A stretch of 64,000 nucleotides of DNA. Source: Carcharhinus amblyrhynchos (taxonomy: Eukaryota). The notes below the pieces were generated by a model. That model saw only the letters and a list, made by a program, of their open reading frames with translations, was not told where the DNA came from and did not search any database. Position numbers and translations under genes: made by a program. The number at the start of each line of letters is the position of its first letter. Position 1 is the first letter of the stretch. The DNA is taken from the NCBI GenBank assembly GCA_965287045.1, contig OZ336874.1, forward strand, positions 35,650,001 through 35,714,000, in the 5' to 3' direction. Below, in pieces: positions 8,101 through 44,510 of this stretch.

Positions 8101-8859
8101 AGGTAAAATATAGCGAACACGGGACAGTTGCAAGCAGTGCCAATCTGACCCAGGTGCTAGTCATTTAAGTTTGTATTTAATTCAAATCACTGCCATGCAA
8201 ACAGTTAGAAACCCACATTTGTTATATAACAGACGGGACTGTGATAAAGTTATGCTGGGGTCATCGGGTTGACGGTGAAGTGCGGTGGGAGCTGTGCATC
8301 TGTGGTACCAATGTGTGTGATTACCTGTCTGGAAGCAAGTGCTGCAACCCACTCACCCCCGCACCCCAGCATTGGCACAGTTACAGAATAAAAAGGCTGG
8401 AGAGAGACAAACGGCGAATTTGTTTCTCTCTCTTTCTGTAAGGACAGTAATCAGTTAGGAGTTTCCTCATAGAATGTGGTCATACCCAGAAAAGCGTTTG
8501 TTTAACATTAAGAACGTATCTTATTTGCACATTTCACTACTTGTGTGAGAAATGGGAAGGGGGAGGGGCATTCCGTTTATAACATAACTCCCCTCCAATG
8601 AAAAGACAATCAATTCGATACAATTTGTAAACATCCTTGGCCGCTGCGTTTGAGGAATAAACAGAGAGCAAGCAAATGAGAGCACTGAACTTACTTATTT
8701 CAGGGGGTGGGGGTACTGACTTGGTTTTTGTTTCATTACTGCTCCTGAGCTGTAATTAAAACTATTTGGTACATTTCTGGAGGCAGACTGAGGAGGGAGG
8801 GGTAAACAGAGGGTGAAGCGATGGGAAAAGGCTTTAATTATTCAGAATGTTAGAGAGTA

Positions 8860-9353
8860 ATGCTTTGGCCGGCATGTGATGCAGTGTTTCCGAATCCCCC
8901 CTCCTCGCACTGTGTAAATTATTTGCAGACGGCCAAGCATTGTAATCGGACAGATTCGCAAGCTAAAATCAGGGGGTTTGGAGGCGAGAAAGATAACGCC
9001 AAAGTTACCAAGACTCATAGGTGGGGGTGGTTAGTCCGGCAGCTGTAAGAGTTTCACTTTCTTTTCGCTGTGTCGCAGGGGGACTTGGCGATTTTTTTCT
9101 CTCTCTCTAAAGGCGAACAGGACATGATCTCACATGTAGCGAGCTCTTTTAGTTCCTTAATCATTTCACGGTTTGTTCAGAGCCTTTTCTCCACCTAAAA
9201 CGTTTAGTTTCGGATCAATGGGCAGCACCAAAGACGCGGCGGGATAGCGGAAGAGTCAAATTATTCGAAGCCGACAAAACACGCACACACACCGAAAAGG
9301 GGGAAACTTTTCTTCCAATCTCTTCACAAAGGACTCGAAATCCCAGAACCAGT
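8860..9353 (+). promoter_or_regulatory. pax5: Pax5 exon 1A proximal promoter and 5' UTR (TSS not determinable)
   Basis: 9117-9210 (ACAGGACATGATCTCACATG...TTTAGTTCCTTAATCATTTC...CCACCTAAAACGTTTAGTTTC) matches the mammalian PAX5 exon 1A leader as I recall it. The region is CpG-rich, with E-box CAGCTG at 9040-9045 and an IRF/PRDM1-type motif at 9051-9066. Confidence 0.75.
9124..9198 (+). CDS. Putative upstream ORF, 24 aa: MISHVASSFSSLIISRFVQSLFST
   Basis: Open from ATG 9124 to TAA 9196-9198 and coincides with the block resembling the mammalian leader. Translation is not shown. Confidence 0.5.
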   Translation: MISHVASSFSSLIISRFVQSLFST

Positions 9354-9393
9354 ATGGAAAAAAACGGCAGCGCGCTCAGGAGTGTCCGATCAG
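9354..9393 (+). CDS. pax5: Pax5 alternative first coding exon 1A (MEKNGSALRSVRS-G)
   Basis: Strong Kozak context (AGTATGG), 40 nt, donor CAG|GTAGGT. Phase 1 joins exon 2 in frame (G+GG = Gly). The peptide resembles mammalian MDLEKNYPTPRTSRTG (EKN...R..R.G). Confidence 0.85.
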
Positions 9394-11949
9394 GTAGGTT
9401 TAAAAACGTTTCTGTGAAGAAGAAAAATATATAAATAATTAGAAAGCATGAAGCGACTGCATTGGTGACAGCCTCATACTTAACAGTACAGAAACATCAT
9501 TCATTCTATAAAAATGCATAGGAAATGTTCAGACACTTGCTTTAAAAAACAAAGGAATTTTAAATAATCAAGCGGGGTTCAATGACCGTTCAAGTCCTGG
9601 GGAATATTTGAAGCGAATTTAGTGAACTTTGAAAACTTAAAATAAACGCTAAGCATAAACAAAGGGTAGATGTATCTCCGGGCGTGAATATGGGCACTTG
9701 TGCTGTTTGTCTGAAATGAGCAGGTTAGGGGAAGACATCTTGGTGCTGATTTTTAGAGTTGTTTCCCCGTCAGAACTGAGCGTGATAACTTTTTCACGCG
9801 TTGCGGCAAATTCGGATTGCAGTAAAGCCCCCTCCAGCGATCACTTCAGATCGATAAGATAATCAATGGTCGTTCCTGAGGTTCAACAGTTTAAATAATT
9901 TAAAACACACGTTTAGTTCATGTTTAAGTTCAAAGTCGTTTGGTTTCCACTTAATATTTACAAAGTGATGGTTGTCATCAATCTGCGCAAGGCGAAACTG
10001 TTGAAGTGAGATCTGCAGCTGGGGGAGGGGGTGACAAAAAAAACAGTTCGCCGCAAACCTCTGCTTTCATGTGCGAAGGGGTGAGGTTGATCATCGCTCC
10101 TGCTTGCCTGTGGGTGTGTGTGAGTTGATCGGGATTGCTTCCAGGGTTTTTTTGTTTGCAGTTTTGCAGAATTAAAATATGTACAGTGGCTGGATTCGGT
10201 GTCACCTAAGTGTTTGCTTTGCTTTTTGCATATCGTTTGTTTTTAAGTGTCTAGATGGTTCGATAGACGCGCTGCAGATGTGGGCGATGCCGGGCACTCC
10301 ATATTTTGGTTTCTGGTTCGGAGATTAATACAAAATGTTTGTGATTGACTTGTTGATGAAAATCTCCCCCTCTCCCACCACCCGAACTGTTTTCAAATAA
10401 CCCTCTCCAGTAACTGCTTTAACATGAACTCCAAAGGTGAAACGAGCGTACGGAGGCCTCAATAATAAACATAAATTAACCCACACCGTTCACTTTGTTG
10501 ATAAACATTGATTTCAAACTTCAAAAAGTAAAGAAAAGCGAAACAGTAAAATGACCCTACCGACATCGGCTTTGGGGATCTGCGGCAGCAGCTGTTCTGA
10601 ACCTTTGACTGTTTTACTGTCTTTTAGTGCGGGACAGGTGCCGCTATAGTCAAATGGAATGAAGTTAAAATCTCTTTTGGATTTTTGTCCCGATTCTCGG
10701 ACACCCACTGTTTGACTAATTCTGACAAAAATAATTGAACAAAGCATTTCATCACATTAAAATAATTTTTTACACATTTACTTGTGAATACCCAGTGAAT
10801 TTCAATCGAGGGCTGAGGGCATGTACTTTATAACTGCAAATAAAATGTCTCCGATTGGGTTTGCCGGTCATAATGGCCACGCGTACTGAATCTTCAGCGG
10901 CAAGGCACGCTCCTTAACTCTTCTGCACTCAGTACGTCAACTCAAAACTCAGGCAATCCTTCCAATGAATCCGCACGACTTTGTTCGATTTTGCCCATAT
11001 TTCAGATTAGGAAGGCAAAGGTGGCGAACCCCTGATTTGAAAGGAGCGGTTTCAAAGTTGTTTTTGATCTCTGGTATCTTGACATGGTGTAGGGACTGAG
11101 AAGTATCTTCCTCCTGTGCTTTACAGTGTGAAATGTGGCTCCGTGTTGTCTTATACCTTCCTGCATTTCACAATACGTGCGTATCCGCTGATTATAAACA
11201 ACACTATTTTTGCTCATTTCTCAAACTGTAGGACCTCAATCGCCGTGATTCACCCAACATGGTGGAACCAGACACTGAGACCTTGCTTTTGAGAGCAGTG
11301 ATGGGGGGGGGGGGGGGGGGGGGGGGAATGGTTACAGGGTGAACGGTGAATATCGGGGATGTCTCGCCGTGCGAAGTGCCATCTGATTTTCTAGGGATTG
11401 TAAGACATTGCTATTTTCTTATCTGAAATTAATTCAACAGGTTTGCCCAGCAGCCTGTTCGCCAATACCAGTTGGACTGACAGTGATGGTTCAGGTCGCC
11501 GGCCTGTGTTTAACGTGCCCAGTTCTGTACTCAGGACCTCCACCACTTCCGCACGGCTCTGATAAAATAACAAATCAAACCCGGTTATGGGTAATGGTTC
11601 ACATCGCAAGAAATAAATCATTCAATGAAACGCAACTCCCAGCTTCCAAAAGCAGAGCGCTTAATAACCACACGACTCGGCAAAAGAATGTATTTTGTGG
11701 ATCCAGGTTTTGCCCATTACCTCTCCTGCTATTTAGAATAACACAGAGCCGTCTGCAATCCGGTTCCATTCACCACGCTCTCTTTAACCAGGGCCCTTTG
11801 CTGTTCCTTTCAATGGCAGCGTGTTAAAAATGAAAGAAACAAGAAAACGAATAGGATCTCGAAAAGGTTTAGTTAAAAAAAACAGGCCGCATTTGGCCTC
11901 AAGTATTCTTCAGCGTATTAATTTGAAATCCGTCACATAATTCACGTGG

Positions 11950-21279: not shown

Positions 21280-22082
21280 CAGTATGAGCCAATCAGGGTG
21301 CTGTATTAAATAGCCAATTAGCAGCGAGACCACCTCTGCTCTCTATAAAAGCTGCAGCTTATTGGTGAATGTTTTGGTGAATGCAGACCTTGCGATTGGC
21401 CATTTCTCTCAGACAGGAGTGTCATTGGTGAATAAGTCAGCAGCTCGCCCGGGGATTGGTCAAAAAGCTGGGCTGCTTTGTGCGATTGGTCGGCAGGAAG
21501 GAAGACTGTTCCTCGATTGGCTGACGGTGCTGTGATTGACAGAGACTGGGGCCGAGCGCCGTCCCAGCAGGGCTGAGCCTCGGGCGAATCAGCGCCGAAT
21601 CACCGCGGGCTCAGCCACATTTAAACACTATGGAGGAGAGTGAGCGCGACTGAATACAGAGCAGGGGGCCAGCGCACTCCGGGGAAACGGGAACCCGCCT
21701 TCACACACACACAGCGGACAAATTGCATAGGAAAACGCCAAAAAAAGAAGCTGGAATTCATAAAAGGATTTTTTCTGGTTTCGAACGATTTCGAAGTTAA
21801 AATCCCCTGCTGTCACTAGGTAGCAATTGGATCTTTTTTGGGGGGCAATGCATTGCATTTGTCAAACTTAACTTTTACGTTCCTTGTGCAATCCGTCCGA
21901 AACCTTGTGGATCACAAAGACGTAGGAGCTGCAATTAGTGGCTGGCATCGAGATCTTCTTCTGGGTTTGCGTGGGGTGCTGCTCACCCCTCTCTTGTTTT
22001 TTTTGGGAGTATAGGTGAAGGGGTTAAATCCAGACCAGGAAATCGAGGTTTTCTCCGAGTTGAAGACCGGCTGCGCCTTTTC
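21280..22082 (+). promoter_or_regulatory. pax5: Pax5 exon 1B promoter / CpG island / 5' UTR
   Basis: CCAAT at 21289 and 21314, six ATTGG at 21361-21520, TATAAAA near 21344 and a CpG-dense stretch at 21540-21700, directly upstream of the exon 1B ATG. Confidence 0.75.
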
Positions 22083-22125
22083 ATGGAAATCCACTGTAAG
22101 CACGACCCGTTTGCAGCAATGCATA
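22083..22125 (+). CDS. pax5: Pax5 alternative first coding exon 1B (MEIHCKHDPFAAMH-R)
   Basis: ATG at 22083, 43 nt, donor A|GTAAGT, phase 1 (A+GG = Arg). The peptide matches the Pax5 exon 1B type MEIHCKHDPF, not the Pax2 type MDMHCKADPF. Confidence 0.95.
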
Positions 22126-24705: not shown

Positions 24706-24871
24706 GGCATGGCGGGGTGAATCAGCTCGGAGGGGTCTTTGTGAATGGTCGCCCCCTCCCCGATGTTGTCCGACAGCGGATCGTGGAGCTGGCCCACCAA
24801 GGGGTGCGACCCTGTGACATTTCCAGGCAGCTCAGGGTGAGCCACGGCTGCGTCAGCAAGATTCTGGGCAG
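24706..24871 (+). CDS. pax5: Pax5 exon 2, paired domain N-terminal (PAI) subdomain
   Basis: Polypyrimidine tract and TACAG| acceptor, 166 nt, donor AG|GTAAGA. Encodes [55 protein letters not shown]. Confidence 0.98.
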
Positions 24872-32930: not shown

Positions 32931-33134
<204 letters not shown>

Positions 33135-35625: not shown

Positions 35626-35937
35626 TATAACTAAAACCCTTATTATTAAAGAAAAGTAACACCAGAAAGCATCTGTATGTTAAAGGCAAAGTGTACCTTT
35701 TGTAATCCTGTATTTTGAACAAAGTACCCCCAAAACCTCTTGAAAGAGTGGATTCAGAGAGCAGAGATCTGGCTATCTCACCAGTATGATGTAGTTTTAC
35801 ACGCACCATTAATAGTTCATAAGAAAAATATGATATTGAGAAAGTTAGTAGAAATGTCGAATTATGGATTAATGATTGATTTTTCTTCTATATGTTCTAA
35901 AAATTGATTTTCTTTCATTAATTTTACTTTTATTCAG

Positions 35938-40615: not shown

Positions 40616-40747
40616 CACCAAGCACAGTGGCAGTAACTCCAGTTCCTTCAGCCGCCACAGACCCTGCAGGATCTTCCTATTCCATCAGTGGCATTCTGGG
40701 GATTACACCTTCCAGCGCTGAGAATAATAAGAGAAAACGTGATGAAG
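40616..40747 (+). CDS. pax5: Pax5 exon 5 with octapeptide and NLS
   Basis: Acceptor GCACAG|, 132 nt, donor G|GTAAGT. Encodes [52 protein letters not shown] is the Pax5 octapeptide (Pax2/8 have YSINGILG/YSINGLLG). Confidence 0.97.
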
Positions 40748-43489
40748 GTAAGTGCAAGAACACCTTGCATGTGCAGAAAGATATGCTTTTGCCATTAAGT
40801 TCAAAGTCTTCACTTGTATGAAGTAAAGGGGCATGTTCAGAATTGGAATAATAATTTCTGGAATTGGTTAGCGCTATGAATGATGGAACATGATCTGTGT
40901 GATATTACAAAAACATGTCTTCAAGTGGAACTAAATAAATTCAAATTTATTATAATTTATATTAGATAAGCACATTTGTGTAAGGGAGTGTTTTTCAATT
41001 GCAGGAAAAGGGTCAGGCTGTTACGTTACTTTTGCAGAAAGTAATAGCTGTTTTGAAGTGTAAAGTATCTTCTGCTAATCAATATTTTGCAATTGAATTA
41101 AATTGCCTAATTCTTTTTAATGATTTATTTGCATTGTGTTGAAGTAGTCAATGTGTTGCACAAATTGCCCTGAATGAAAGTTTGTTGATATTCTTGATAA
41201 TTCTATGTTTAGTTGTGCATAGAAGGGAGGATGAAATGTAAATGTTTTTCATTGTCTTGTTTCATTACCTATGTATGAAATCAAGCACTTTACCAGACCC
41301 TCTCTTTTACCGTCTGTGGTTGTGCTGTGCAAACTTTTATAGTGTGTAAAGTTTTAAAAGTATTTCGCCAGAACAAAGGTGTGTGTCCACATTCAGCAAA
41401 ACGTTGTTTGCGCTGCCAGTTAATTGAAAGATTGCTGTAGGCAGGAGTTAATAGAGTGACAGTGGTCAGAGGACAGCGTACTCCAGCTCTGGTCCTATTT
41501 ACTGAAATGTGAATACTGGGAAAGGGAAGATGATACACAGTTCAATTCTGAACAATATTGGCAGGCTGCATGCTTTGTATGTGCTTGTTGTGCACAGTGT
41601 TTTTCTGAAATGCTGCTTTTGCAGTTTTTCATGCTGTGGAACCTTATTTGGGTTGTTGTGTGATGTGCCCTGTACCCTTCACGAAGACCCTGATGAATAT
41701 GGAGTATTGTCCAGCTCATGATCCGTAACAAAATTTGGTAGATTATTTCCAATAACATTCCAACTATACCCCAAGAGCCTGCTTGCCAATGTATCCTCTC
41801 CCAACTGATTTAGCTAACTTTAATTTGTTGTTTAAAAAATGCAAGTTTTCATAACATTAAAATTACAGCATATCACAAGCTCATTGGTTAAGAATGCAGC
41901 TTCCCAGTGGCTTTGTAGGAATATTGAAAACGTTCGTTTTTGTGTGATTAAGCAGCCTATAATCCTTCGCTAACAATTAGTTGACAATATGTTGCTGTGT
42001 GGGCAAGGAGCTTTGCTCCATCCCCTGTATCCTTTTTATTTTCACTAGTGATTAGGATTCTAACCAATCTGTTAGCTGTAACTTTATTTGCAGACAATAC
42101 CATACAAAATGTTTTTCTACATTGCTGGAAATAGTACTAAGCATTCAGAGAATGTTTTACTTCTTAATTGCTTTTTCTCTGACCTTTTGGCACCTCACAC
42201 GCGATGCATCCTCTTTCAGGTCAGTGGATGTTTGATTGGTATTGGTTAGATCAGGAATTCCAACTAGATTGTAGGAATCAATGTGAAGAATGGATATAAT
42301 TTATTTTCTTGCTACAAATCCAAGTTATTTTTCCAATTTGTCACGCACTCCTTGTCCCAAAATATTGACCGCTGTGAGAGAAGACTTCCCCAGCTGCTGT
42401 TTACTATCTTGCAGCTCACTAAAGTGGCCATTCTTTGCTCATACGCACCCAGACAGTGGCTGACTCTGCCTTTCCCTTGCCTGTGGACTTTGCAGCAATG
42501 CTCGCCAACTAGATACATTCTGCCTACTTTGCAAAGGATGTTAGGGGCATGTGATATCTCGTTCAAGCTGATAAGCCCATTTAGGCTTAATAATGTAACC
42601 ATCTCTAAAATTCAGTTACACCCTGCATTTACTTGCTGAACTTTGTTTATTATGCATGTAAACATGCACATTTTTATAGAGATTCTAAGCCATAGAGGAT
42701 ACACTCTGAATTGGTTTTCTTAGATCCAAAGTTTCTCATAGTGAATTCCATCTACAATAGTTCTGCCCGCTTGTTTAAGTACCTACATATCTTCTTGCAT
42801 TCCTAAACACAGCCTAATGTCCTTCTAACTTAGTGCCATTTGTAAACTTAGATATCCAATTCTTTAGGTGTGTTCTGTCTGAAAAGGAACATATCTAGCA
42901 ATCCAGCACATCCTCAGCTTTGTTCTGGATGTCAGCCTAACTGCCTAAGTTCTTTTGTGGGGTTCAAACCTACAACCTTTTGATCAAGAGGGAAGACACT
43001 ATGGTCTGGATTTTAAGGTTGTAATGATGGCAAAACTGTCAGTGTTCACTGTCACCACAACTGACGACAACTAAACGTGACAGCATTCTGGTGTCTGTAC
43101 ATATGCAGTCAGATGACTATTTCCCTGAGAAAGTAATAGCACACAAATTGAGACTATAAACTCTCCCTACATTATAACAGTGATTATTGTCTGCAAAATG
43201 CTTTGGGATTTAATAAGGTAACCTAAGTGCTATAAAAATGCAAGACATTCTTTATAATAAAACAGAGTTTGTGATTGAGTTATGTTCTCTGATTGAGCTT
43301 GGTTTGGTAAATAAAATGTGTGTCTATGCGTGCATATGTGTACGTGGCTACTGGAAGAGGTTGAAATAGGGCTCAGTTGTGATGCTATATGCAAACAACA
43401 AATTGTCTGAAAACACTTACTGATGGTTGAAGTATGGTAAACTGCATTATGTCAGGGATTTGTGGTCACCTTTGGAGTTTCACCCATAA

Positions 43490-44510
43490 AAGGTGTCTGC
43501 ACCTTCTAGGAAGGGAAAAGAGAATTAGTACTTTCAGAAGTGTGGGAAAAGATCTGCACCTTCAGGGAAGATGGGCGAGAGCCAGTGTTTTCAGGAGAGA
43601 TAGAGAGAGAGAGAGACAGTCAGCAGCTTCAGGAGAAACAGAAAGAGTCTGCAATTTCAGGAGAGAGAGAGGGAGGGAAAGAGAGAGAGTCAGTACCTTC
43701 AGGAGAGACAGAGAGAGTCAGGAGTTTCATGAGAGAGAGAGAAAATCAGCAGCTTCAGGAGAGAGAGAGTTGGAAGCTTCAGGAAAGAGAGAGTCAGCAG
43801 CTTCAAGAGAGACAGAGAGAGAGAGAGAGAGTCAGCAGCTTCAGGAGAGAGAGAGAAAAAGTCAGTACCTTCAGGAGAGAGAGAGAGAGTCTGCAGCTAG
43901 GGGAGAGAGAGAGAGACAGAGAGAGAGAGTCAGCAGCTTCAGGAGAGACAGAGGGAGAGAGTGTCGGCAGCTTCAGGAGAGAGAGAGAGAAAAAGTCAAT
44001 ATCTTCAGGAGAGAAAGAAAGAGAGAGAGTTGGAAACTTCAGGAGAGAAAGAAAGAGAGAGAGTTGGAAACTTCAGGAGAGAGAGAGTCAGCAGCTTCAG
44101 GAGAGAGAGAAAGAGAGAGAGTTGGAAACTACAGGAGAGAGAGAGTCAGCAGCTTCAGGAGAGAGAGAAAGAGAGAGAGTTGGAAACTACAGGAGAGAGA
44201 GAGTCGGCAGCTTCAGGAGCGACAGACAGACAGAGAGAGAGAGAGACAGAGAATCAACAGCTTCGAAAGAGAGAGAAAAAGTCAGTACCTTCAGAAGAGA
44301 GAGAGTCTGCAGCTTTAGGAAAGAGAGAGAGAGAGAGTCAGCACCTTCAGGGAGGGGAGAAAGAATCAGCAGCCATAGGGAGGGGAGAGGGTGTCTGCAC
44401 CTTCAGAGGAGTATTCTGAGTAAGTAGCTTATATGAAGGATAGAGAGTCAGTGTCCTCTGAGGAGGAGAGAGAAATTCAGCATCTTCAAGAGAGGGGGGA
44501 GAGAAAAATC
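43490..44510. repeat. GA-rich minisatellite, unit approximately (GA)nGTCAGCAGCTTCAGGA with variants GTTGGAAACT(T/A)CAGGA and GTCAGTACCTTCAGGA
   Basis: Directly visible tandem units with variable GA spacers, degenerate at both ends. Confidence 0.95.

Follow-up and report, generated by a model that had tools for sequence, protein, structure and literature searches.

The 64,000-nt stretch of Carcharhinus amblyrhynchos DNA analysed here (hereafter the window) carries exons of Pax5, among them the first exon 1A with its leader and the alternative exon 1B (Table 1). Exons of the paired box were located near 24706 and near 32933; exon 4 followed near 35937 and the octapeptide exon near 40617–40747. 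The octapeptide exon had 100% identity with each of two named shark Pax5 proteins, and all 13 matches of a search with it were Pax5, paired-domain or hypothetical records. The peptide encoded by exon 1A matched the N-terminus of a named shark Pax5 protein (P0003) at 13 of 14 residues and resembled the 1A peptides of tetrapods and teleosts; the exon is already annotated in databases. The sequence-only reading had taken the region to be the leader of the B-cell-type exon 1A of Pax5, an assignment borne out by these protein matches and by a contig of a related fish (X4) in which exon 1A is spliced to exon 2. In the available text of PMC6132355, exon 1A is described as the B-cell-restricted first exon in mammals, and the Pax5A first exon is said to appear only with mammals. 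N-termini of the 1A type are present in named frog, reptile, bird and teleost proteins. Since the shark possesses exon 1A, its relative splices it to exon 2 and these other vertebrates share the N-terminus, the exon would be old, and from the sequences compared it looks as old as jawed vertebrates.

Two further observations were made in the window. Upstream of exon 1B (21300–22082), ATTGG (CCAAT-box) motifs were numerous and a TATA-like stretch was noted near 21343, although in human the accessible part of PMC2504290 calls promoter 1B TATA-less. The intron following the octapeptide exon held a GA-rich degenerate tandem array (43595–44388), and this array, which does not have the appearance of a gene, gives rise to the only stop-free frames of more than 170 codons (43431–44427).

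Table 1. Positions of Pax5 exons and of leader features within the window.
Feature	Position	Strand	Basis
Likely transcription start of the long-leader exon 1A RNA	9041	+	Inferred from the 5′ end of relative X1
IRF/Blimp-1-like motif inside the long leader	9052..9061	-	Consensus scan
Letter-level invariant block, wider than uORF1, about 140 nt	9100..9238	+	X1 alignment, shared words
Weak TATA-like sequence, 2 mismatches, 5′ edge of block	9104..9113	+	Matches at 9104 and 9106
Predicted stem enclosing the upstream AUG (9109–9120 with 9173–9187)	9109..9187	+	Folding prediction
uORF1, 24 codons	9124..9198	+	ORF reading; purine at −3, A at +4
E-box (9131–9136) overlapping an ATG-stop element (9134–9139) in another frame	9131..9139	+	Consensus scan
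Initiator-like heptamer inside uORF1	9161..9167	+	Consensus scan; one of 7 such matches in 8950–9353
uORF2, 9 codons	9218..9247	+	19 nt past the uORF1 stop, 106 nt ahead of the main ATG
Pax5 exon 1A coding part, MEKNGSALRSVRS plus 1 nt	9354..9393	+	Strong start context, donor GT at 9394
Alternative exon 1B coding part, MEIHCKHDPFAAMH	22083..22125	+	Window reading
Exon 2, start of the paired box	24706..24871	+	Spliced to exon 1A in contig X4

Upstream frames in the exon 1A leader

Translation of the leader confirmed the 24-codon upstream frame (uORF1) that had been claimed from the sequence, with its ATG at 9124, its TAA at 9196–9198 and the product MISHVASSFSSLIISRFVQSLFST*. The main ATG at 9354 follows its stop by 155 nt and its ATG by 230 nt. 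Having a separate reading frame and its own stop, uORF1 cannot be fused to the main protein; its peptide was absent from the N-terminus of all 124 Pax2/5 proteins read, and in the same set no leader sequence was found within the long N-termini of annotated Pax5 proteins. Two additional ATGs, absent from the sequence-only reading, occur in the leader, one in the ATG-stop element and one at the start of uORF2. Graded by the Kozak rule, the start context was middling at 9124, weak at 9134, limited to a G at +4 at 9218 and strong at 9354. The leader is single-copy in its own genome; five matches to a looser pattern elsewhere in that genome were judged from the matched text, without alignment, to be due to chance.

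When the 313-nt leader (9041–9353) was shuffled 5000 times with its dinucleotides preserved, a contained uORF of at least 24 codons arose in 26.6% of the shuffles and three or more ATGs in 9.8%. Because an equally long frame is held by 26.6% of shuffled leaders, the mere presence of uORF1 is at chance level.

Conservation among related fishes and the encoded peptide

Leader words were present in 24 listed sequence runs, of which 18 were guessed to be RNA and none is on record as such. Contigs from four runs of related fishes (X1, X3, X4 and X5) were aligned to positions 8500–9600. At 80% identity the X1 and X3 alignments ended soon after the exon 1A donor, so these fishes are not close kin of the shark. 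Over 9044–9394, X1 differed from the window by 11 listed substitutions and 5 gap events, none of which fell within 9099–9238. The longest event-free run was 141 nt (P about 0.005 under an even spread). Considered alone, uORF1 contained none of the 11 substitutions (P 0.07), and its substitution count of 0/75 differed from that of the leader further downstream, 8/115 (Fisher P 0.023). The invariant flanks, 24 nt on the 5′ side of the frame and 40 nt on its 3′ side (64 nt together), were improbable by themselves (P 0.010). The start and stop of uORF2 were also unchanged in X1, with two substitutions within its last codons.

The invariance appeared to extend to other runs. Exactly 12 of 49 sampled words were shared by each of X2–X7, six runs representing five organisms (A–E); five others (F–J) were more distant in the run listing. 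An invariant block at 9100–9238 leads to an expectation of 11.3 words and an invariant uORF1 alone to 4.7, whereas an even spread of the differences seen in X3 and X4 leads to 2.4 (P 0.003 and 0.001, respectively, with gap-event numbers in the simulation being estimates). Base-by-base reading covered X1 only, the invariance of X3 and X4 being derived from word counts, and the counts suggest that the same block is kept in five organisms. Conservation of this stretch among related fishes is beyond chance, and the block around uORF1 is real and conserved among cartilaginous-fish-like relatives.

The sequence-only reading had proposed uORF1 as a conserved peptide, persisting from shark to human. 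In X1 its start, stop, frame and all residues were indeed intact, with neither silent nor replacement changes; the peptide as the conserved unit is so far not supported, as the flanks and the silent sites were invariant too. For the 17.3 silent sites of uORF1, 1.2 changes would be expected at the rate of the downstream leader (P 0.29) and 3.5 at 20% divergence (P 0.02), and the zero silent change of X1 taken alone is weak evidence. Authentic Pax5 coding sequence did vary: two third-position changes of X4 fell within the opening 30 nt of exon 2, and in X1 the coding part of exon 1A differed by a silent and a replacement change. Since silent sites vary there, selection at the peptide level should have left the silent sites of uORF1 free to change. 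Invariance that includes these sites and reaches into the flanks points to a constraint on the letters of the DNA or RNA and not on the peptide.

A peptide conserved from shark to human, whose nascent 24-mer would stall or tune the ribosome or act in trans and thereby set the dose of Pax5A in B cells, is a doubtful explanation, although besides the intact frame in X1 one property of the product is in its favour. The last 11 residues of uORF1 were more amphipathic than shuffles (P 0.005–0.009), a level that 3% of 293 short ORFs from the background attained, and a 10.5-nt T periodicity was not seen as the source of this signal. This is the sole result that favours a real peptide, with which it fits; it was one among many tests, and the amphipathicity of the whole peptide was ordinary (P about 0.5). 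No homologue was found among proteins of 22–70 aa, an exact look-up of the peptide returned no record, and no Pfam family was assigned to it. There was no silent variation by which selection on codons could be recognised, and the invariance extends outside the frame. A single metagenome match (L002, 601–673) showed no alignment beyond the motif, was surrounded by bacterial-looking genes and was attributed to chance. A degenerate-pattern scan of viral and prokaryote collections gave 0 matches; these collections hold no vertebrate genomes, so that this result does not constitute evidence.

Likely transcription across the upstream AUG and motifs in the block

The upstream AUG at 9124 was covered by contigs of X1, X3 and X4, all from runs guessed to be RNA. 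The X1 contig starts with an adapter, which we take to be a template-switch adapter, followed by three bases and by alignment from 9044. A transcription start downstream of 9124 had been named beforehand as the observation that would speak against a translated frame; in this relative the likely cap site, at about 9041, lies 83 nt upstream of the AUG. From there the contig continues unbroken through the block into the intron and is therefore likely nascent RNA. The X4 contig aligned over 9082–9394, with 95 loose letters further upstream, and continued into exon 2, so that in these related fishes, with the runs guessed to be RNA, a spliced sequence places the AUG-started uORF1 within an mRNA leader. 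The X3 contig aligned back to 8792 at about 88% identity, plus 90 loose letters, which reflects either a start further upstream or DNA/nascent RNA; X5 is probably DNA. The contigs give no share of starts, and more starts inside the block are compatible with them. In the X3 alignment the promoter region at 8700–9040 was conserved too.

Motifs were scanned by consensus. The IRF/ISRE-type motif in the long leader was perfect and its Blimp-1-like version had one mismatch; it lies 11–20 nt after the likely start, and the loose end of X4 carries one change within it. Blimp-1 represses Pax5 in mammals.

The block could be purely transcriptional, consisting of the core promoter of exon 1A and factor sites, with most mRNAs starting inside the block or after the AUG and the frame being a passenger. 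We consider this rather unlikely, though a serious candidate. In its favour are the invariance of letters beyond the frame and the motifs of TATA, E-box and initiator type that the block holds; moreover, an equally long frame is common by chance (27%). In human, the reference leader of 237 nt has no called uORF (see below) and promoter 1A is described as TATA-containing in the accessible part of PMC2504290; there is also a precedent, in that leaders classed as hyperconserved have in many cases proved to be E-box-bearing promoter DNA, according to the passages available of Akirtava et al. (2022; PMC9456764). Set against this, the X1 contig was unbroken from about 9041, and X3 and the spliced X4 reached well upstream of the AUG. 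No TATAWAWR with 0–1 mismatch was present in 8500–9400, so that the TATA box expected some 30 nt ahead of the start in a TATA-type core promoter was lacking. The initiator-like heptamers in the block (9149, 9161 and 9204) are weak promoter evidence, and such matches were frequent (7 in 400 nt, across 8950–9353). Moreover, ribosomes generally make some use of an upstream AUG that is favourably placed.

The letter-level constraint would also fit an RNA structure or an RNA–protein site, in which the predicted stem encloses the AUG and gates scanning. The stem appeared in both the minimum-energy and the centroid fold, with pair probabilities of 0.9–0.95 over most of its length. However, folding was not stronger than in shuffles, being in fact worse for the leader (z +1.70; block z +0.83), and none of 13 sliding windows of 80 nt fell below z −0.9. 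In Rfam nothing came near threshold (the best hit, 20 bits against a 38-bit threshold, lay outside the leader), and a block that is invariant cannot show covariation. A structural role of this kind therefore seems very improbable.

Human PAX5 and comparison with known systems

For human PAX5, ORF calls from 669 Ribo-seq samples were taken from Supplementary Data 5 of PMC10908861. On the reference transcript ENST00000358127.9 all programs called the main ORF at nt 238, i.e., after a 237-nt leader, and no uORF was called in its row, the only PAX5 row among the rows listed; some genes are split across the table, and other PAX5 isoforms may stand outside the rows listed. Neighbouring rows do list uORFs beside their transcripts, some of them at nt 4, 5 and 9. 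Transferred to ENST00000358127.9, the shark spacing would put the human upstream AUG at nt 8, and a slightly longer human leader would put it outside the transcript, where transcript-based ORF tables are blind to it. No PAX5 entry was found among the 7,264 GENCODE ORFs of PMC10032668 Table S1 (searched without a positive control), and none among the human–mouse conserved uORFs of PMC1402274. Among the rows listed of the human table of PMC4568590 two were for PAX5, neither of them a uORF, and the supplements of PMC7484617 and PMC9456764 contained no PAX5 uORF. Absence from the human catalogues searched, among the rows listed, counts against a conserved peptide, and the human data, which are indirect, are unfavourable to a uORF that works from shark to human.

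In support of such a uORF, the sequence-only reading proposed a similar frame in the human leader; the human PAX5 region presumably holds such a frame, with a longer spacer to the main start, a statement not independent of that reading, and older human annotations presumably had a longer leader. At its fullest, this explanation would hold that an undescribed uORF peptide has existed since the origin of jawed vertebrates on long-leader Pax5A mRNAs only, with start choice and the nascent amphipathic peptide together setting the dose; it would have escaped notice since the reference transcript in human begins at the frame or within it. We regard this as improbable.

The explanation we favour, to which we give an even chance, is that the exon 1A leader contains a regulatory DNA/RNA block whose AUG acts as an ordinary scanning brake and whose peptide is a by-product. 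The letters of the block would be held constant for a regulatory reason, residing in the promoter or the leader. Ribosomes scanning from about 9041 would partly start at 9124, given its middling context, and stop at 9198; they would then skip the AUG at 9218, which follows after 19 nt, and some of them would reinitiate at 9354, after 155 nt. Ribosomes that leak past 9124 would encounter the ATGs at 9134 and 9218 first. By general rules, spacings of 19 and 155 nt fit leaky scanning and partial reinitiation. The brake on translation, which we infer from sequence features, would reduce the amount of Pax5A made from mRNAs whose start lies upstream of the AUG, while RNAs starting inside the block (compare the short human reference leader) would escape it, so that the choice of start site would set the dose of Pax5A.

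In human PAX5, the untranslated 5′ portion of exon 1A reportedly contains a repressor element (work of 2001 by Rahman et al. in Gene and by Hirabayashi et al. in Mol Biol Rep); it was reportedly repressive in reporters and read as transcriptional. A description of a PAX5 uORF was not found in a literature search conducted mostly outside subscription papers and the CPuORF tables of PMC7530721. The word uORF did not occur in the accessible text of a 2022 PAX5 review (PMC9456430), which covers control by the 3′ UTR, splicing and miRNAs. Pax5 is named in a different context in the text available of PMC12985389 and was not named in the passages seen of PMC12970346 and PMC13010147, nor in the hyperconserved-leader texts searched, which were available in part (10.1101/2020.06.29.165878; PMC9456764). 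The Pax5 uORF is thus probably undescribed, whereas this kind of element is common, and its interest lies in the gene, where dose matters: in the part of PMC6132355 available, lymphoma is associated with excess PAX5, and B-cell leukaemia with the loss of one copy. If the B-cell leader does carry a conserved brake, non-coding variants and hypermutation of the region would have one small, testable target there.

Among known systems, the conserved-peptide uORFs (CPuORFs) of animals, catalogued in the ESUCA screen with 1517 entries, are likewise AUG-started uORFs of suitable length, unfused, before a conserved main ORF (Takahashi et al., 2020; PMC7530721, as far as available). They require a Ka/Ks significantly below 0.5 across orders, whereas the ratio of uORF1 is undefined because neither silent nor replacement changes were seen in X1. 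A second comparison is with the hyperconserved 5′ leaders of Byeon et al. (10.1101/2020.06.29.165878), which in the accessible text require an overlap of at least 250 nt with PhastCons LOD 500 in mouse leaders; the Pax5 block spans about 140 nt and was followed in fishes only. The two nevertheless have in common that a developmental transcription factor's leader is conserved at the letter level, and the passages available of that work and of PMC9456764 indicate that hyperconserved leaders share with the Pax5 block an E-box and an uncertain start site.
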